DNA of 64,000 nt from Dongiaceae bacterium (GCA_035492855.1 DATJIU010000312.1:2299-66298), one strand, 5' to 3'; shown: positions 21,118-30,491, numbered from the stretch's first letter. Notes: generated by a model not told the origin, from the letters alone. Numbers and translations: made by a program.

Positions 21118-22197
<1,080 letters not shown>

Positions 22198-22294
22198 GGC
22201 AGATTGACAAATTACAGGCGGCGCACGCAAACACCCGGGCGAAGCGCACCCCGGCCCACGACCCGAATCGCAATCCAGAGCGCGGCCGGAGATA

Positions 22295-22353: not shown

Positions 22354-22596
22354 CTAGGCCTTTTTCTTCTTGGGCGCGGCGGCAGCCTGAGCGGCGGCCG
22401 TTTTGGCCAGCCGTTGCTGGTACTTGTCCACGCGGCCGGCGGTATCCACAAACTTCTGGGTTCCGGTGTAGAACGGATGGCAGACGTTGCAGATGCCGAT
22501 AATGACGGTGGACTTGGTGGAGCGGGTCTTGATGACGTTGCCGCAGGCGCAACGAATTTCCGCATCCACGTATTTCGGATGAATGTCAGCTTTCAT
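22354..22596 (-). CDS. rpmE: 50S ribosomal protein L31
   Basis: MKADIHPKY...CxCG...CHPFYTG signature with a Lys/Ala-rich tail. Confidence 0.92.
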
Positions 22597-22849: not shown

Positions 22850-24988
22850 ATGGTTTTCCGCACTTTCATCAAATCCCTGCTGGCCGGGCTGGTTCTGGCC
22901 GGCGTCTGGACCGGCGTGCCGGCTTGGGCGGCCAACGAGCCGATTCCGAATGACAAATGTCTGGAATGTCATTCCGACAAGGACCTGACCAAAACCAATG
23001 CCCAGGGGCAGGCCATTTCGCTGTTCATTGATGAAGCAGGGCTGCATCGCTCCATCCACGCCACCAACACTTGCGTCAGTTGCCACAGCGACCTGACGGA
23101 AGATCATCCGGACAACCTCATCCCGGCCAAGCCGCCTACCTGCGTTACCTGCCATCCCGAGCAGTCCAAACAGTATGCCGCGAGCATTCATGGCATGAGC
23201 CACGCCATGGGGGCCTCCGGGGCGGCCAATTGCTGGGACTGCCATGGCAAACACGACATGCTCCCGGCCAGCAACGCCAATTCCCCGGTCTTCAAACTCA
23301 ACCTGCCGCAGACCTGCGCCAGATGCCACAGCAATTCCAAGCTGACCAAGGAATACGAGATGAAGCGTCCCGAGGCGGCCGCGCAATACAAGGACAGCAT
23401 CCACGGCCGTGCGCTGCTGAAGATGGGGTTGATTGTGGCGCCCTCCTGCAACGACTGCCACGGCGTGCACGACATCAAACGCTCGGTGGACCGCGAGTCG
23501 CCCATCAACAAGGCGAACATCGCCAAAACCTGCGGCAAGTGCCATGTGGGCGTGGAGCAGACCTACAATCGCAGCGTCCATGGCCAGTTGCTCGCCAAGG
23601 GGGTCGAAAACGGGCCCGTTTGCACCACCTGCCACACGGCGCACGAAGTGGAAACGCCCAAGAACGGCCATTTCAAAATGGCCAGCGACGTCCGGTGCGG
23701 CTCGTGTCACAAGGAGCAGTACGAACATTATCGCGACACCTACCACGGCAAGGCGATGGCGCTGGGCAAACCCAATGTGGCCGCCGACGTGGCCGCCTGC
23801 TACGACTGCCATGGCCATCACGACGTGTTGCCGCCGTCCGACCCCGACTCGCACCTGTCCAAGCAGAACATCCTGGGGACCTGCCAGCAATGCCATCCCA
23901 AGGCCACGGCGAAATTCACGGAGTACCGGCCCCACGCCAACCCCATGGACGCCAAGAGCGATCCCCTGCTCCACATCGTGTTTCTGAGCATGACCGGCCT
24001 GCTCGTGGGGGTGTTCACTTTCTTCGGCCTGCATACCATCGCCTGGCTGGTTCGTGCGGTGTGGTTCTATCTGCACGACTCCAAACAGTTCCGCGAGGCC
24101 AAGGTGCGGTCGGCGGAGGACGAGGAATGCTTTACGCGGTTCGTGCCGTTTGAGCGCTTCCTGCATTTCCTGGTGGTGACGAGTTTCCTGTTGCTCACCA
24201 TCACGGGCATGCCGTTGAAGTTCTACTACACTGAATGGGCCAAGGTGTTGTTCTCCTTCATCGGGGGGGCCCAGACGGCACGGACCCTGCACCGCTTCGG
24301 CGCGGTCATCACGTTCCTGTATTTCGGCCTGCACGTGGCCTCGCTCATCGGCAAGGCGTGGAAGGGCCGCAAGGAAGTGCGCGACCCCGCCACCGGCAAG
24401 TTCAAGCTCAAACGGCTGTGGGGGGTGCTGTTCGGGCCGGATTCCATGGTGCCCACCCTCCAGGACTGGCGCGATTTCGTGGCGCACAACAAGTGGTTCT
24501 TCGGCAAGGGCGCCAAGCCGGAGTTCGACCGCTGGACGTACTGGGAAAAATTCGACTACTTCGCCGTGTTCTGGGGCGTGCTCATCATCGGCTCCTCGGG
24601 CCTGCTCATGTGGTTCCCGGAATTCTTCACCCGCTTCCTGCCGGGCTGGGTCATCAACATCGCCCTGCTCATCCATTCGGATGAAGCCCTGCTCGCCGCC
24701 GGGTTCATCTTCTCGATTCATTTCTTCAACACGCATTTCCGCATTGAGAAATTTCCGATGGACACCGTCATCTTCTCCGGCCGCATCTCCAAGACTGAGA
24801 TGCTCCATGAACGGCGCCGGTGGTACGACCGGCTGGTGGCCTCCGGGCGGCTGGACCGTCATCGCGTGCGGGACGAATGGGATCAATGGAAACGCATTGC
24901 CCGCTCCTTCGGCTATCTTTTCTTTGGTATCGGCGTGCTGCTGTTGTTGCTCATCATTTATGCGATGGCCACCCGCCTGTTGCATTGA
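22850..24988 (+). CDS. Undecahaem cytochrome c fused to a C-terminal multi-TM cytochrome b-like domain (CbcL-like)
   Basis: Signal peptide. I counted 11 CxxCH motifs. These are followed by about 6 hydrophobic helices carrying conserved His (HFLVV, HRFGAV, LIHSDE...SIHFFNTHF). Confidence 0.85.
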   Translation: MVFRTFIKSLLAGLVLAGVWTGVPAWAANEPIPNDKCLECHSDKDLTKTNAQGQAISLFIDEAGLHRSIHATNTCVSCHSDLTEDHPDNLIPAKPPTCVTCHPEQSKQYAASIHGMSHAMGASGAANCWDCHGKHDMLPASNANSPVFKLNLPQTCARCHSNSKLTKEYEMKRPEAAAQYKDSIHGRALLKMGLIVAPSCNDCHGVHDIKRSVDRESPINKANIAKTCGKCHVGVEQTYNRSVHGQLLAKGVENGPVCTTCHTAHEVETPKNGHFKMASDVRCGSCHKEQYEHYRDTYHGKAMALGKPNVAADVAACYDCHGHHDVLPPSDPDSHLSKQNILGTCQQCHPKATAKFTEYRPHANPMDAKSDPLLHIVFLSMTGLLVGVFTFFGLHTIAWLVRAVWFYLHDSKQFREAKVRSAEDEECFTRFVPFERFLHFLVVTSFLLLTITGMPLKFYYTEWAKVLFSFIGGAQTARTLHRFGAVITFLYFGLHVASLIGKAWKGRKEVRDPATGKFKLKRLWGVLFGPDSMVPTLQDWRDFVAHNKWFFGKGAKPEFDRWTYWEKFDYFAVFWGVLIIGSSGLLMWFPEFFTRFLPGWVINIALLIHSDEALLAAGFIFSIHFFNTHFRIEKFPMDTVIFSGRISKTEMLHERRRWYDRLVASGRLDRHRVRDEWDQWKRIARSFGYLFFGIGVLLLLLIIYAMATRLLH

Positions 24989-25012
24989 ATCAATCCAGAT
25001 AGACCAACCTAT

Positions 25013-26743
25013 ATGATGTACCGGAGTTTGTTCCGGTCGCCCGGATTCTTCCTGGCGACCTTGCTGGCGTTGCTCGGACCGCTTTCCCTGGTCCGCGCCG
25101 AGATTCCCAACGACAAGTGCCTGGAATGTCATTCCGACAAGGACCTCACCAAGAAGGATGCCAAGGGCAAGGAGGTTTCCATCTATGTGGATGCCGCCAA
25201 ACTGGCCGCCTCCAGCCATCGCACCAACACCTGCGCCAGTTGCCACAGCGACCTGACGGAAGACCATCCGGACAATGCCATCCCGGCCAAGCCGGTGGAT
25301 TGCGCCCGCTGCCATCAGTCCGCGGCGGAAAGTTATTCCGGCAGCGTGCACGGGCTGGCGTTGAAGGCCGGCGACGCCAACGCCGCCACCTGCATAGACT
25401 GCCACGGCACGCACGATGTCTTGCCGCCAACCGACCCCGAATCGCCGCTACATTACACCCGGCTGGGCGCCACCTGCGGCCAGTGCCACACCGAGGCCGC
25501 GGCCGATGTGGCCGAGAGCATCCACGGCCAGGCCGTTGCCGCCCACATGCGGGAGGCGCCCACCTGCACCGATTGCCATTCCGAACACAAAATCGAGGCG
25601 CTCAAAGGGCAGTCCTTGCAAAAGCGGGCCGAGCAAATCTGCGGCAAATGCCACGCCTCGGAACGCATCAATGCCAAGTTCCACATGCCGAATGACCGGG
25701 TGAAAACTTTCTTTGAGAGTTACCACGGGCTGGCGGTGCAAGGCGGCTCCGCCAGCGCGGCCAATTGCGCCAGTTGCCACGGCTATCATAAAATCTTGCC
25801 ATCCAGTGATCCGCGCTCTTCGGTTAATCCCCAACATCTCGTGGCCACGTGCGGCAAATGCCATCCCGGCGCCACCGAGAATTTCGCCCAAAGCCGCGTG
25901 CACATCAACGACCTCGCGGCCAACGACCACGGCGCGGTGGTGAACCGCTGGGTCCGGCGGGTTTATCTGGCGCTAATCTTCACGGTGGTGGGTGGACTGG
26001 CCGGTCACAATCTCCTGGCCTGGTTGCGCGCAGCATTGGCCGCCCGCCGGGCCCGCGGCGTCACGGTTACCCGCATGAACCGCAAGCAGCGCCTCCAGCA
26101 TTTTATCCTGCTGAGCAGTTTCATTTTGCTCGCGCTAACCGGCTTTGCCCTGAAGTATCCCGATACCTGGCTGGCGTGGCTGTTCGGCGGTGATGAAAAC
26201 ATCCGCCGCTGGATTCATCGCATCGCCGGGCTTGCCCTGCTGAGCGTGGGCTTCTATCACCTGCTCTATCTCGTCGTTACGCGTGAAGGCCGGCAACTAC
26301 TCAAGGATTTCTGGCCCCGCTGGCAGGATCTCAAAGATGTCATTCTTAATGTGCGCTACCTCACGCGCCGCAGTTCGCAGCGGCCCCGGTTTGGCCGGTT
26401 TGGCTATGCCGAAAAGATGGAATACTGGGCCGTCATCTGGGGCACCATCATCATGGGCGTCACCGGCCTGATGATCTGGTTCAAGATGGAAGTGACCGAA
26501 TACGTGCCCCGCTGGGTCGTGGATGTGGCCATTACGGTTCACTATTACGAGGCCATCTTGGCGTGCCTGGCCATCATCGTGTGGCACTTCTATCATGTCA
26601 TCTTCGCGCCGGATGTGTACCCCATGAACTGGGCCTGGTGGGACGGCCAGGTTTCCGAAGAATGGGAGCACGAAGAACATCCGCTCGATCATTCCACCCC
26701 GCCGCCGGGCAAGGATTCCAACACGACCGGCGTGGAAATTTGA
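25013..26743 (+). CDS. Nonahaem cytochrome c fused to a C-terminal cytochrome b-like membrane domain (CbcL-like)
   Basis: Signal peptide. 9 CxxCH motifs. About 5 TM helices with His (QHFILL, IHRIAG, TVHYYE...WHFYH). Paralogue of the upstream gene. Confidence 0.85.
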   Translation: MMYRSLFRSPGFFLATLLALLGPLSLVRAEIPNDKCLECHSDKDLTKKDAKGKEVSIYVDAAKLAASSHRTNTCASCHSDLTEDHPDNAIPAKPVDCARCHQSAAESYSGSVHGLALKAGDANAATCIDCHGTHDVLPPTDPESPLHYTRLGATCGQCHTEAAADVAESIHGQAVAAHMREAPTCTDCHSEHKIEALKGQSLQKRAEQICGKCHASERINAKFHMPNDRVKTFFESYHGLAVQGGSASAANCASCHGYHKILPSSDPRSSVNPQHLVATCGKCHPGATENFAQSRVHINDLAANDHGAVVNRWVRRVYLALIFTVVGGLAGHNLLAWLRAALAARRARGVTVTRMNRKQRLQHFILLSSFILLALTGFALKYPDTWLAWLFGGDENIRRWIHRIAGLALLSVGFYHLLYLVVTREGRQLLKDFWPRWQDLKDVILNVRYLTRRSSQRPRFGRFGYAEKMEYWAVIWGTIIMGVTGLMIWFKMEVTEYVPRWVVDVAITVHYYEAILACLAIIVWHFYHVIFAPDVYPMNWAWWDGQVSEEWEHEEHPLDHSTPPPGKDSNTTGVEI

Positions 26744-26851
26744 CCGGATTTGTCCCAAACTCCGGTGGCGGCCAATTCCGATTGCCGTCACCGGTTTTTT
26801 GTTGCCGGTTTCGCGCTTGTCAGCGGCGGGGATGGTCCATAACACTTGCGC

Positions 26852-27367
26852 ATGCTCATTCCGCTGGTCATGACAGTCATCGGGCCGGACCGGGTTGGTC
26901 TGGTGGAATCCATCGCGCGGCTGGTGGCCGAAAACGGCGGCAACTGGCTGGAAAGCCGCATGTGCCGGCTCGGCGGGGAATTTGCCGGCATCCTGCGGGT
27001 GCATTTGCCCGCCGAACGCCGCGCAGTCTTGGAGTCCGCCCTCGCGGAATTGCGCGATCTCAAAATTGTTGTGCGTTCGGACGAAGCCCCGGTTGCCCCC
27101 GGCAAACCGCGGCTGGCCGCGCTGGAAGTTATCGGACCGGACCGCCCCGGCATCGTCCGCGAAATCACCCGCACCTTGGCCGCCCAAGGCGTGAACGTGG
27201 AGGAGCTGGCCACGGAATGTGTCAGCGCGCCGATGTCCGGCGAACCGCTGTTCCAGGCGCGGGCCAAACTGCTGCTGCCCGGCGGCAGCGACCTGGGTCA
27301 ATTGCGCCAGACCCTTGAAAAGGCGGTTGCGGGAATGACGGTGGAAATCTCCATCCCGACTGAATAG
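26852..27367 (+). CDS. ACT-domain protein, GcvR-like (glycine cleavage system regulator family)
   Basis: Two ACT-like halves (VIGPDRVGLVESIARLV... and VIGPDRPGIVREITRTL...). ATG at 26852; the track ORF begins at TTG 26846. Confidence 0.7.
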   Translation: MLIPLVMTVIGPDRVGLVESIARLVAENGGNWLESRMCRLGGEFAGILRVHLPAERRAVLESALAELRDLKIVVRSDEAPVAPGKPRLAALEVIGPDRPGIVREITRTLAAQGVNVEELATECVSAPMSGEPLFQARAKLLLPGGSDLGQLRQTLEKAVAGMTVEISIPTE

Positions 27368-27396
27368 CCGGCACAACTTTGTTTGTAAAAAACAAA

Positions 27397-27425
27397 ACCC
27401 GCGAACCATCTGTTCGCGGGTTTTT
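27397..27425. terminator. Bidirectional rho-independent terminator between convergent genes
   Basis: ACCCGCGAAC-CATCT-GTTCGCGGGT flanked by an A-run upstream and TTTTTG downstream. Confidence 0.75.
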
Positions 27426-27439
27426 GATTGGAATAAAGC

Positions 27440-28894
27440 TTACACTCCGGCGGCTTGTGCGGCCGCGAGGTCGCTGCGGCGTTGCTTCAGGCTCTTGAAA
27501 AATTCATAGCCTTCGCGCAACCGGCGCACACAAACATCCTTGTCCTCCAGCATCGTCTTGATGATGCGGAGAATTGGTTTCGGGCGCAGGTAGTAGCGGT
27601 GATAGAAGCGTTCCACGCTCTCGAAGATTTCCTCCTTGCTCAGGCCGGGATATTCGAGGGCGCTCTGCTGGAAGCCGTCGCCTTCCACGAGGTCGGTTTT
27701 GTCTTTCTTCACAAACCAGCCGTTGAGCTTGGCCTGCTCGTAGAGTTCCGTGCCGGGATACGGCGCGGCCAGACTGACCTGCAGGCTGAACACATCCAGT
27801 TCCTGCGCGAAGCGGATGGTCTGCTCGATGGTTTCCTTGGTTTCGACCGGCAGGCCGAGAATGAACGTGCCGTGAATCACCACGCCCGCCTGGTGGCAGC
27901 TCTTGGTGAAGCGGCGCATTTCATCCGTGGTCACACCCTTCTTGATGCGGGTGAGGATGTCGTCGTTGCCACTTTCGTAGCCCACGAGGAACAGCCGGAG
28001 GCCGTTGTCTTTGAAGCTCTTGATCGTGTCGTAATCGAGGTTGGCGCGGCTGTTGCAGCTCCAATCCACCCCGAGCGGGCCGAGTTTCTTGGCGATCTCG
28101 CGGGCGCGCGGCAGGTTGGCGGTGAAGGTGTCGTCGTCGAAGAAGAATTCGCGCACCTGCGGGAAGATTTTCTTCATGTATGCCATTTCGTCGGCCACGT
28201 TTTGCGGCGAACGGACACGATACTTGTGGCCGCCGATGGTCTGCGGCCAGAGGCAAAACGAGCACTGGGCCGGGCAGCCGCGGCCGGTGTACATGCTCAC
28301 ATACGGATGCTGCAGATAGCCGATGAAGTATTTCTCAATCTGCAAATCGCGTTTATAGACGTCGGCCACCCACGGCAACACGTCCATGTCGGCGATCATT
28401 GCGCGCTCGGGGTTGTGCTTGATCTTGCCTTCCTTGTCCTTGTAGGAAAGCCCGGCGATGGTCGCGAGATCGCGGTCTTCGGCCACTTCCTTGCAGGTGT
28501 AATCAAATTCCTTGCGGCCCACCCAGTCAATCGCCCACGAGGCCTTCAGCGTCTCGGTGGGCAGCACCATGGTGTGCGCGCCCACAAAGCCGACCTTGGT
28601 GTCGGGCTTCTGCTGCTTGATGGCCTCGGCCACCTTGCAGTCGTTTTTCAACGACGGCGTGCTGGTGTTGATGATGACGTGGTTGAAATCTTTTGCGATG
28701 GCCAGGCACTTTTGCAGGTCAATGTCGTGCGGCGGGCAGTCGAGCAGCTTCGAGTTCGGCACCAGCGCGGCCGGTTGCGCCAGCCAGGTGGGATACCAGT
28801 AGCTGGTGACTTCGCGGCGCGCCTGATAGCGCGCGCCCGCGCCACCGTCGAAACCGTCAAACGAGGGAGGGGAAAGAAACAGGGTCTTGCTCAT
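27440..28894 (-). CDS. hpnJ: Hopanoid biosynthesis-associated B12-binding radical SAM protein HpnJ
   Basis: MSKTLFLSPPSFDGFDGGAGARYQARREVTSYWYPTWLAQPAAL closely resembles HpnJ N-termini from memory. Radical SAM CxxxCxxC is present (GRGCPAQCSFCLWP). Confidence 0.8.
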   Translation of the reverse strand: MSKTLFLSPPSFDGFDGGAGARYQARREVTSYWYPTWLAQPAALVPNSKLLDCPPHDIDLQKCLAIAKDFNHVIINTSTPSLKNDCKVAEAIKQQKPDTKVGFVGAHTMVLPTETLKASWAIDWVGRKEFDYTCKEVAEDRDLATIAGLSYKDKEGKIKHNPERAMIADMDVLPWVADVYKRDLQIEKYFIGYLQHPYVSMYTGRGCPAQCSFCLWPQTIGGHKYRVRSPQNVADEMAYMKKIFPQVREFFFDDDTFTANLPRAREIAKKLGPLGVDWSCNSRANLDYDTIKSFKDNGLRLFLVGYESGNDDILTRIKKGVTTDEMRRFTKSCHQAGVVIHGTFILGLPVETKETIEQTIRFAQELDVFSLQVSLAAPYPGTELYEQAKLNGWFVKKDKTDLVEGDGFQQSALEYPGLSKEEIFESVERFYHRYYLRPKPILRIIKTMLEDKDVCVRRLREGYEFFKSLKQRRSDLAAAQAAGV

Positions 28895-28915
28895 GTAATG
28901 GGAAAAATATGGAAC

Positions 28916-30274
28916 TTATTCGGATTTCTTGGCCGCGGCAATTTTGGCCAGCAGGGCATCGCGCTCGCTGGTGTCGCCGGTGCCGCAACTGCCGGCGGCG
29001 GGCGCATTGATCGCCGCCTTGGCCTCGGCCAGATGGCCTTTGCCGATGGAAACGCCGTTGTACACCGGCGCGTTACGTCCGGCATAATAAGGCTTGGGCC
29101 GGGCGCCAAAGTTGTATCTGAAATTCTTCCAGTTGTCGCCGGACTGGTAGTTGGTGCCAAGCGCGCCGCTGGGATCGTAACCGCAATGCACCATGCAATT
29201 CTCGCAGCGCGGATCGCGGGCCACGCCGTCCACCACGCCGTACTTGTTCCAGTCCACCTTTGTCAGCATCTCCTGGTAGCCGGCATAATGGCCGTCGGTC
29301 ATCAGGTAGCACGGGGCTTTCCAGCCCTTGATGTTGTAAGTGGGAATGGCCCACGCGGTGCAGGTCAGCTCGCGCTTGCCGGCGAGAAACTCCTGGTACA
29401 CCGGCGTGCCAAAAATCGTGAACCGCTCGCCCCATTCCTGGATGCGCGCAAATTTCTCGCGCGTCATTTTGCGGGTAAGGAAGAAATCTTCCGGCTGCTT
29501 GCCCAGGCGCTTAACCATGTCTTTCTTGGCGGCGTCGTATTCGTAACCGGGCGAAATCGTGTGGCCGTCCACCTCCATGGCGGAGAAGAACTCGAACATC
29601 TGTTCGATTTCTTTCATGTCAGTTTCCTTGTACACGGTGGTGTTGGTGGCCACCTGGTAACCGATAATCTTGGCCATCTTGATGGCTTCCACGCATTCCT
29701 TGAAAACCCCCTCGCGCTCCACGATGAGGTCGTGGGTGTATTCCAGGCCGTCCACGTGGACGTTCCAGTACATCCATTTGCTGGGAGCAATGACCACCTT
29801 CGCGCGGGCGGCGGCATCGGCCTTGCGGATGGTTTCCGCGTCCTTGTCGGTAATCAGCTTCGCCTCCAGCAACTGCTGCAACTGCGGTTCCCAAGCGGGC
29901 GAATAGACGGAGGCCAGGTAGTCGCGCATCTTTTTGCGCATGAACATGCCGTTGGTGCAGATGTACACGATTCGGCCCTGGGTCAGAATGCCGTTGACGA
30001 GTTCCTCGATCTTCGGATAAATGAGCGGCTCGCCCCCGCAGATGGACACCATGGGCGCATCGCACTCCTCGGCCACGGCCAGGCATTTCTCCAATGGCAC
30101 CATGTCCTTGAGCGAGGTGGAATACTCGCGAATACGCCCGCAGCCGGTGCACGTCAAATTACAGGTATGCAACGGTTCGAGCTGCAGCACCATGGCAAAC
30201 TTGGGGGTGCGGCGCAGCTTGTGTTTGATGATGTGTCCGGCGATTTTCGCCGACAGCGCTAGGGGGAAACGCAT
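28916..30274 (-). CDS. hpnH: Adenosylhopane synthase-like radical SAM protein HpnH (with internal insertion and C-terminal tail)
   Basis: LEPLHTCNLTCTGCGRI, ISPGYEYD, FLAGKRELTCTAWAIPTYNIKGWKAPCYL, CENCMVHCGYDPS. Start taken at MRFPLALS (ATG 30274). Confidence 0.8.
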   Translation of the reverse strand: MRFPLALSAKIAGHIIKHKLRRTPKFAMVLQLEPLHTCNLTCTGCGRIREYSTSLKDMVPLEKCLAVAEECDAPMVSICGGEPLIYPKIEELVNGILTQGRIVYICTNGMFMRKKMRDYLASVYSPAWEPQLQQLLEAKLITDKDAETIRKADAAARAKVVIAPSKWMYWNVHVDGLEYTHDLIVEREGVFKECVEAIKMAKIIGYQVATNTTVYKETDMKEIEQMFEFFSAMEVDGHTISPGYEYDAAKKDMVKRLGKQPEDFFLTRKMTREKFARIQEWGERFTIFGTPVYQEFLAGKRELTCTAWAIPTYNIKGWKAPCYLMTDGHYAGYQEMLTKVDWNKYGVVDGVARDPRCENCMVHCGYDPSGALGTNYQSGDNWKNFRYNFGARPKPYYAGRNAPVYNGVSIGKGHLAEAKAAINAPAAGSCGTGDTSERDALLAKIAAAKKSE

Positions 30275-30278
30275 AGGA

Positions 30279-30491
30279 TTATTGGGTTTGAGCGAGCAAA
30301 TGGGCCGGGGCGGCATCCGGCAGCGGGGCGGTGGGCGCCGCCGCGGGAGGATCCGCCTGCATCAGGCCCGGGAGGAAAAAGCTGGCGGGAGAGACACTTT
30401 GGGAGGCGTTGATGCCGCCGCAACCGCTCCCCAGCAATAAAAACAAGGAGGGCAGCGTTGCCAACAATACAGATTTCCAGTTTAATCTCAC
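30279..30491 (-). CDS. Small putative lipoprotein, first gene of the hpnH-hpnJ transcription unit
   Basis: GTG start. Signal plus lipobox LLLGSGC. Ala/Pro-rich tail. Its stop lies 2 nt before the hpnH ATG. Confidence 0.45.
   Translation of the reverse strand: MRLNWKSVLLATLPSLFLLLGSGCGGINASQSVSPASFFLPGLMQADPPAAAPTAPLPDAAPAHLLAQTQ

Follow-up and report, generated by a model that had tools for sequence, protein, structure and literature searches.

Two adjoining open reading frames (ORFs) on the plus strand of a 64,000-nucleotide stretch of DNA deposited as Dongiaceae bacterium (GCA_035492855.1, DATJIU010000312.1:2299-66298; the whole stretch is hereafter termed the window) raise the question of what a tandem pair of proteins resembling CbcL, the fused multihaem cytochrome c and membrane cytochrome b of Geobacter, might contribute to its host, and why two such genes should lie side by side. 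An original prediction, made from the sequence alone, had described the two genes, here designated ORF A and ORF B, as encoding fusions of this kind, and both ORFs were recovered at exactly the coordinates it gave (Table 1); ORF B had been deposited as 'cytochrome b/b6 domain-containing protein' (HTJ00794.1). From their architecture, homology, fold, conserved haem ligands and conserved pairing, we consider it likely that A and B are co-transcribed inner-membrane proteins of the CbcL/MtoC/MtrH family that link the quinone pool with periplasmic electron carriers.

The N-terminal portion of each protein is marked by a dense series of haem c attachment motifs. ORF A contains 11 CxxCH motifs (at residues 37, 75, 98, 128, 156, 200, 228, 258, 283, 317 and 345) and ORF B nine (at residues 36, 74, 97, 127, 155, 185, 210, 252 and 280); beginning with the third motif, CxxCH alternates with CxxCHxxH[DEK], which occurs four times in A and three times in B, and both the counts and the alternation originally described held on recounting. 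Chance cannot explain these motifs, since 20 of them occur in just two ORFs with a third-codon-position G+C content (GC3) of 0.78-0.84 and with thousands of homologues. Comparison with Pfam profiles matched the c domain of A to Cytochrome_C7, Paired_CXXCH_1 and Cytochrom_c3_2, all above threshold, and that of B to the c7, c3_2 and Paired_CXXCH families above threshold and to an NrfB-like family below its cut-off, the paired-CXXCH families being represented in both proteins. Conservation was gauged in 120 A-type and 120 B-type homologues: in the c domain of A, at least 15 histidines outside the motifs are conserved at 96% or more, against 11 haems, while in that of B exactly nine further histidines are invariant, one per haem, and no methionine is conserved. 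These additional histidines agree with measurements on the periplasmic domain of CbcL, in which all haems were found to be bis-His coordinated (PMC9129911). The cleavage sites of the predicted signal peptides that precede the c domains (Table 1) were placed by eye. Among solved structures, the best match to the first four motifs of both proteins is chain A of PDB entry 28pb ('Cytochrome c', 278 aa), which spans window positions 22952-23377 (A residues 35-176; E = 3e-14) and 25112-25630 (B residues 34-206; E = 2e-17).

Beyond the c domain, hydropathy and AlphaFold2 models give six transmembrane (TM) helices in A and five in B. The models, built from 81-sequence alignments with predicted local distance difference test (pLDDT) scores of 79.2 (A) and 82.8 (B), place the helices of A at residues 372-409, 433-457, 474-505, 564-588, 600-630 and 677-711, with a long TM2-TM3 loop inside its FdnI-like core. 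Both proteins exceed the gathering score of PF01292 (Ni_hydr_CYTB, prokaryotic cytochrome b561), B with 61.9 bits and, owing to an insertion that breaks up its match, A only narrowly (30.5 bits, the cut-off being 30.1). A phmmer search of the PDB matched the membrane domain of B to FdnI (1kqf_C; E = 1.4e-9), the cytochrome b556 gamma subunit of formate dehydrogenase-N of Escherichia coli, aligning B H363, H402, H510 and H525 with FdnI His 18, 57, 155 and 169, which are haem ligands in the FdnI structure. When the models were compared with Foldseek, 1kqf_C was the sole confident fold match (probability 1.00), with TM-scores, normalised to FdnI, of 0.73 for A and 0.67 for B; no full-length CbcL-like structure was present in the copy of the PDB searched. 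The FdnI-equivalent histidines (H439, H481, H609 and H624 in A, and their counterparts in B) are invariant among the 120 A-type and 120 B-type homologues. The membrane cytochrome b fold envisaged in the original prediction was thus recovered in FdnI-like form, with four bis-His ligand positions as in FdnI.

Two further membrane histidines are invariant in all 160 aligned A- and B-type sequences: one lies in the linker helix TM0 (A H395, B H332) and is present in the CbcL of Geomonas too, and the other lies 14 residues past the TM2 ligand (A H495, B H416). Their role may be to hold a third haem or to form part of a quinone site.

FdnI has in common with A and B the four-helix fold, the four histidine ligands and the stacked dihaems, but it is a subunit of its own (217 aa) docking to FdnH, has neither c haems nor a linker helix, and is only 18-22% identical to them. 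Names attached to relatives, taken literally, would have these proteins anchor a formate dehydrogenase or hydrogenase in the membrane: homologues from the Joint Genome Institute (JGI) are called 'formate dehydrogenase gamma subunit' or 'cytochrome b subunit of formate dehydrogenase', and the NCBIfam model TIGR01583 and FdnI models are the best matches to the b domain. Inspection of the scores showed that TIGR01583 reaches 69.1 bits for B and 44.9 for A against an equivalog cut-off of 115.85, and that NF007558 and NF007924 score far under their cut-offs of 339-341; moreover, a fused multihaem c domain takes the place of the FdnH docking partner, and fdnGH or hydrogenase genes are absent beside the window genes and at every locus examined. 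We regard such an anchor as highly improbable.

How closely the two proteins correspond to CbcL was judged with a protein of Geomonas propionica (616 aa) in place of GSU0274 of Geobacter sulfurreducens. Its CxxCH motifs (at 34, 57, 82, 105, 129, 158, 186, 229 and 257) occupy the published GSU0274 positions, and the species is represented in a published alignment whose sequences all exceed 65% identity to CbcL (PMC9129911). Both ORFs align with it over near-full length. ORF A shows 36% identity across 635 aa (E = 1e-126; A residues 95-705), from its third haem motif through the sixth helix, so that haems 3-11 of A correspond one-to-one to haems 1-9 of CbcL; ORF B is 31% identical over 570 aa (E = 1e-73; B residues 36-555), from its first motif to a point short of the sixth-helix position. 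Fragments read from the supplementary alignment, which are nearly identical to A over long stretches, retrieved as queries short C-terminal fragments of CbcL-clade proteins, to which A residues 527-708 are 50-57% identical and the equivalent region of B 32-41%. The register of the two additional haems of A is ambiguous because the modules are repeated: BLAST alignment with CbcL makes them N-terminal, and MAFFT alignment with B makes them internal (motifs 5-6).

These comparisons divide the features of CbcL unequally between the two proteins. Both share with it a signal peptide, a bis-His multihaem c domain, a linker helix and an FdnI/HydC-like dihaem b domain, all as predicted from sequence; A alone shares the TM2-TM3 loop (FGPDS...RWTYWEKFD), the helix HSDEALLA.GFIF..HFFNTH and the C-terminal sixth helix. 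Relative to CbcL, A has two extra haems; in B, TM6 is absent and the loop is short, as in FdnI. Its six TM helices, the CbcL-specific TM2-TM3 loop, the C-terminal helix and the higher identity to CbcL-clade fragments together indicate that the 11-haem A, and not the nonahaem B, is the closer counterpart of CbcL. The resemblance originally proposed therefore stands insofar as both proteins are fusions of a multihaem c domain with an FdnI-like dihaem b domain and are full-length homologues of CbcL; it does not extend to the nonahaem protein being the best counterpart.

Placement within the wider family follows from the same evidence. Members of the CbcL/MtoC/MtrH family range from 28.6 to 100% in identity, those of the CbcL clade from 57.6 to 100% among themselves; members of the broad family carry 3-23 haem motifs and mostly six TM helices, a few having four or five (PMC6295460). 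With their multi-CxxCH N termini, HydC/FdnI-like b domains bearing the expected histidines, and full-length homology to CbcL, A and B are readily assigned by sequence to this broad family, A fitting the six-helix majority and B, with five, the reported minority form. Comparison likewise indicates that they lie outside the Desulfuromonadales CbcL clade, given the gap in identity (36% and 31% against 57.6-100%) and the grouping of A with proteins at Verrucomicrobiota and Holophagae genome loci, to which it is 64-70% identical. Nor is the layout of that clade (nine haems in about 615-620 aa) matched by A, with 11 haems in 712 aa, or by B, with 576 aa and its first four motifs spaced differently.

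Other known systems resemble the pair in part. MtoC (Dechloromonas, Gallionella) and MtrH (Rhodoferax), likened here by motif positions only, have nine haems, and their first three motifs (at about 36, 76 and 101) are placed like those of A and B; they have six TM helices and 650-673 aa, and are encoded in mtoAB or mtrABC clusters, whose genes do not occur in the 64-kb window. Conduit genes of the MtoC/MtrH type are not evident in the Verrucomicrobiota flanks either, save for further multihaem ORFs. CbcBA (GSU0593-0594) of G. sulfurreducens, likened by description, is a quinol oxidase comprising a b-type dihaem membrane protein and a multihaem c protein; unlike the fused A and B, these are two separate polypeptides. 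Homologues of CbcBA have been noted in Verrucomicrobia metagenome-assembled genomes (MAGs). At ten loci from several phyla (L055, L057, L063, L064, L067, L069, L078, L082, L084 and L085) the two halves of an A-like protein are encoded by separate ORFs, one for the multihaem c domain and one (about 280-340 aa) for the b domain alone; these could reflect either frameshifts or genuine two-subunit proteins.

Haem loading, quinone use, direction of flow and partners we infer from these homologies, as follows; the resulting topology is consistent within itself. A signal peptide would export each protein, placing an N-terminal chain of bis-His c haems, 11 in A and nine in B, in the periplasm; the linker helix would bring the polypeptide from outside to inside, back to the cytoplasm, where the four-helix FdnI/HydC-type bundle would begin and end, as does FdnI, binding two b haems stacked across the membrane; and A would carry an additional C-terminal helix, as in CbcL. 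Electrons would travel between a quinone site and soluble periplasmic acceptors or donors by way of the two b haems and the c-haem chain, and the two paralogues, as a conserved pair, would act in parallel, perhaps for different partners or redox windows. Quinol oxidation, with electrons delivered to periplasmic cytochromes, seems the likelier direction by analogy with Geobacter CbcL. That protein is characterised by genetic and biochemical data (it is needed for acceptors below about -100 mV, has an apparent potential, Eapp, of -194 mV, and has PpcA as its electron acceptor).

The surroundings of related genes bear on the same question. At one locus (L003, 13305-21809) an unlinked B-type gene lies beside hemA, three large multihaem cytochromes and an NHL-repeat protein; the multihaem proteins are of 787, 692 and at least 565 aa (the last reaches the end of the locus), and two of them match the MtrC/MtrF domain II/IV family. 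In more distant relatives (L001, 761-12130, on JGI contig Ga0556622_000051, and a 1.8-Mb JGI contig) an A-type gene closes a cytochrome cluster. Besides two monohaem cytochromes c and a hexahaem protein (about 500 aa), this cluster comprises two modules, each of a small multihaem c protein, a Fer4_11 (NrfC-like) protein and NrfD, with a cNMP-binding domain fused to the NrfD of the second. Hexahaem ORFs of similar size (about 500 aa) are often found directly 5' of the A-type gene (L061, L072 and L081). The gene context of relatives thus points to a periplasmic or extracellular cytochrome network. None of these partner cytochromes (hexahaem, NrfCD-like or MtrC-like) occurs in the window, and for that reason the pathway and its direction in this organism are inferred.

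Operation in the opposite sense, as proposed for MtoC and as in FdnI, would have periplasmic electrons reduce quinone at the cytoplasmic side, with a proton-motive loop feeding an aerobic or microaerobic chain; the electrons might be supplied by a periplasmic dehydrogenase, by small cytochromes c, or by Fe(II) or reduced humics. MtoC members occur in Fe(II) oxidisers and the family has been inferred to be bidirectional (PMC6295460), the sole confident structural relative, FdnI, is a quinone reductase, and the first motifs of A and B (at about 36, 75 and 98) are spaced as in MtoC/MtrH and not as in CbcL (34, 57 and 82). Against this, of the sequences compared, those of the CbcL clade come nearest to the membrane domain of A with its loop and TM6 (50-57%); genes of this kind lie near large MtrC-like cytochromes elsewhere; Holophagae, including Geothrix, carry an A-type gene; and mtoAB-like genes are not adjacent in the window or at the loci examined. 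Species of Geothrix are iron reducers. None of these points is decisive, and on balance we judge the reverse direction unlikely.

Several observations nonetheless weigh against a CbcL-like link from the quinone pool to periplasmic carriers, as we propose it. Identity to Geobacter-type CbcL is just 31-36%; no sequence feature separates quinol-oxidising from quinone-reducing members of the family (PMC6295460); FdnI, the closest solved relative, belongs to the latter kind; and the invariant histidines A H395/H495 and B H332/H416 are unexplained by a simple dihaem b model. In addition, the 64-kb window is without a periplasmic shuttle, a porin-cytochrome conduit, and ccm or quinone-biosynthesis genes, and no PpcA-like gene occurs in it. 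The lack of a shuttle or conduit had been anticipated: a scan of all ORFs of at least 40 aa revealed no other cytochrome in the 64 kb, the sole other credible CxxCH being in the zinc ribbon of ribosomal protein L31.

The second part of the question, why there are two genes, is addressed by their distribution. The original prediction had taken them for duplicates that then diverged. A recent duplication was rejected, as A and B are only about 30-35% identical (30% by BLASTP) and each is far nearer its orthologues in other genomes, B being 57-59% identical to the partner genes at Verrucomicrobiota loci. These comparisons indicate that A and B are ancient paralogues, and that their pairing predates the divergence of several phyla. 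A scan of one genome per GTDB species with two conserved peptide patterns that A has in common with the CbcL clade yielded at least 600 matching stretches (534 of these 600 being confirmed relatives) and at least 80 loci, cultured Desulfuromonadales such as G. propionica included. In close relatives the A-then-B tandem recurs amid changed flanks, on ENA contig 87973 and at L005, the latter sharing housekeeping neighbours with the window at 78-95% identity. Among the matches listed, long and short forms are adjacent or near one another in (i) Verrucomicrobiota (L061, L062, L072, L073), (ii) Holophagae (L074, L076, L077 (Candidatus Geothrix odensensis)) and (iii) Ignavibacteria/Bacteroidota (L064, L065, L067, L071, L082), gene order and haem numbers differing among the paired loci. 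The forms are distinguished by the tail after the last haem, which in the short form comprises 283-312 aa and lacks the C-terminal helix, and in the long form comprises 344-363 aa and includes it. Geobacter-type cbcL is a single gene at 47 of 47 loci (L006-L052) among those matches. Pairing is not universal: the two types lie 24 kb apart in one genome (L001/L003), and some loci show A alone. A '27-haem B-like' ORF at L070 was removed from the count of pairs, having no membrane domain.

Conserved pairing of a long (six-TM, CbcL-like) with a short (five-TM, FdnI-like) form suggests, tentatively and with a probability we would place well short of even, that the two constitute a conserved two-component module acting jointly, and that the family may bind an extra cofactor or possess an unusual quinone site. 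Joint action would take the form of a heteromeric complex or of a matched pair for different redox windows or partners; the extra cofactor may be, for example, a third b haem, as hinted by A H395/H495 and B H332/H416. The stricter proposition, that A and B depend on each other as subunits of a single heteromeric complex, for example with electron transfer between c domains or packing of b domains like that of the FdnI trimer, draws on the adjacency kept in at least three phyla despite varying order and orientation while Geobacter-type cbcL is solitary (both among the matches listed), on the 24-nt spacing, which suggests co-translation, and on lineage-specific residues of the N-terminal block that are shared within the cognate pairs of the window and of Luteolibacter. 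It is opposed by genomes, at least two in number, in which the types are unlinked (24 kb apart at L001/L003, and with no B gene in the flanks at L081 or on the 1.8-Mb contig), and by the fact that each protein alone holds a complete path from quinone to periplasm; we consider an obligate complex doubtful.

The N-terminal block just mentioned, which encompasses haem motifs 1-3, shows a conspicuously different pattern from the rest of the two proteins. Over it, A and B are identical at 50 of 71 residues (70%) and at 75% of nucleotides, against about 36% of residues in the remainder. Within it lie the near-identical DNA stretches pointed out originally: positions 22961-22992 and 25121-25152 agree at exactly the 31 of 32 sites reported, and 23062-23134 and 25222-25294, put at about 90%, agree at 67 of 73 (92%). 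The block of A is nearer to its own paralogue B (47/66) than to the orthologues of A (39/66 and 22/63), the rest of A being about 77% identical to those same orthologues. It occurs in two forms among 115 A-type proteins, a B-like form in the majority (about 60% identical to B-types) and another (about 32%). In all eight genomes (8/8) with the B-like form, cognate pairs show slightly greater likeness than non-cognate pairs, and in both the window and Luteolibacter the two partners have lineage-specific block residues in common. Our reading is that an N-terminal module was exchanged, or co-evolved, between the paralogues. Gene conversion, as the original prediction had suggested, gains some ground from a modest excess of same-codon usage at identical residues in the window (37/50 inside the block and 93/160 outside it; one-sided p = 0.03) and none from Luteolibacter (L062), where the block shows no such excess (19/45 against 75/155). 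Short-tract conversion in this genome is accordingly plausible, not demonstrated, and shared constraint, such as a common docking partner, is a live alternative for the likeness of the blocks. Tandem adjacency was considered as the cause of the B-like block and rejected: the blocks of the tandem L072/L073 diverge (0.37), and those of the divergently oriented L062 pair do not (0.63).

Proteins of this kind have been catalogued before. Surveys of genes for extracellular electron transfer routinely list CbcL homologues in many phyla, and homologues of CbcL/MtoC/MtrH were inventoried in 15 phyla, with four in Verrucomicrobia and two in Planctomycetes (Zhong & Shi 2018, PMC6295460). Table S2 of that survey includes Verrucomicrobia bacterium ADurb.Bin118 OQB93798.1 (723 aa), Opitutus terrae Oter_2603 (729 aa) and Opitutae PAW67162.1 (706 aa), all 11-haem, six-TM proteins like A, with nearly equal positions in a comparison made by published motif and TM coordinates only (PMC6295460). 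ORF A is a further member of this Verrucomicrobia subgroup already listed in 2018. Homologues form more than 4100 clusters for A and more than 7400 for B; the nearest are 73-79% identical and, where named, mostly from Verrucomicrobia. Given the Verrucomicrobia and Planctomycetes homologues catalogued in 2018 and the thousands of A- and B-like clusters, the original view of the module as unusual for a genome resembling those of Planctomycetes, Verrucomicrobia and Chlamydiae does not hold. In the Zhong & Shi survey we found no mention of a short-form partner beside the Verrucomicrobia entries, and in the limited literature that could be searched we found no description of paired cbcL paralogues, of the extra membrane histidines or a further cofactor, or of Opitutus multihaem cytochromes.

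The locus itself, summarised in Table 1, is otherwise occupied by housekeeping genes, as first noted from the sequence (rpmE, prfA and an ACT-domain gene), with L31, PrfA and an ACT-domain protein now identified. Since the spacer between A and B is only 24 nt and without a terminator, the two are probably co-transcribed.

Table 1. Features of the cytochrome locus and its neighbours, in window coordinates (TM, transmembrane).
Feature	Position	Strand	Description
ORF A, long-form CbcL-family	22850..24988	+	712 aa; 11 CxxCH; 6 TM helices; HTJ00793.1 'hypothetical protein'
Sec signal peptide of A, predicted	22850..22930	+	residues 1-27, ends AWA; hydrophobic N-terminus; low pLDDT at residues 20-28
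Periplasmic undecahaem c domain of A, predicted	22931..23974	+	residues 28-375; 11 CxxCH; Pfam matches
N-terminal block of A	22943..23155	+	residues 32-102; haem motifs 1-3
Membrane domain of A	23975..24985	+	residues 376-712; TM0 linker, four-helix FdnI-like core, C-terminal sixth helix
A-B intergenic spacer	24989..25012	+	24 nt; terminator not found; equal spacing in the orthologous pair at L005
ORF B, short-form CbcL-family	25013..26743	+	576 aa; 9 CxxCH; 5 TM helices; HTJ00794.1
Sec signal peptide of B, predicted	25013..25099	+	residues 1-29, ends VRA; hydrophobic N-terminus
Periplasmic nonahaem c domain of B, predicted	25100..25960	+	residues 30-316; 9 CxxCH; Pfam matches
N-terminal block of B	25103..25315	+	residues 31-101; counterpart of A block
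Membrane domain of B	25961..26740	+	residues 317-576; TM0 linker, four-helix FdnI-like core; no sixth helix
Ribosomal protein L31 (upstream)	22354..22596	-	gene call
PrfA (upstream)	21118..22230	-	gene call
LOG-family protein (upstream)		-	gene call
HAD hydrolase (upstream)		-	gene call
ACT-domain protein (downstream)	26846..27367		followed by two radical-SAM genes
B12-binding radical-SAM gene	27440..28894	-	
Radical-SAM gene with DUF3463	28916..30316	-	

A scan of the locus for promoters and terminators yielded nothing in excess of shuffle expectation except a strong minus-strand terminator of the neighbouring radical-SAM gene. This hairpin, of the intrinsic-terminator type (27394-27424, minus strand), has a 13-bp stem followed by a T run, and lies directly 3' of the radical-SAM stop codon, before the ACT gene. 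The ACT gene and the two radical-SAM genes (26846-30316), which may resemble hopanoid side-chain genes (HpnJ/HpnH-like), remain beside the cytochrome pair in relatives (ENA contig 87973 and L005). An Rfam scan of the window returned a single match, a tRNA at 45-126.

The origin of the sequence deserves comment. The proteins are deposited as 'Dongiaceae bacterium' (Alphaproteobacteria), and their nearest named homologues are from Verrucomicrobiota; a second 'Dongiaceae bacterium' contig, from the SMAG set (L028), bears a Geobacter-type cbcL; and members of the family are found also on contigs labelled 'uncultured Bifidobacterium' (L068) and 'Campylobacter jejuni' (L053). Such taxon labels of MAGs and contigs look unreliable.

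CbcL-type cytochromes serve metagenome surveys as markers of extracellular or periplasmic electron transfer, and for that use the names given to the two forms matter: the 'hypothetical' A is the true CbcL-like form, and 'formate dehydrogenase gamma subunit' misleads as a family name. As to what these proteins are, our analysis adds little, CbcL-type cytochromes being already known as widespread, Verrucomicrobia included. What is modestly new is that long and short forms are paired across phyla, that their N-terminal blocks apparently co-evolve, and that two more membrane histidines are invariant. The block and the additional membrane histidines offer targets for structural and mutational work, and the frequent pairing outside Desulfuromonadales matters both for designing knock-outs, for example in Geothrix or Opitutus, and for counting 'CbcL homologues'.

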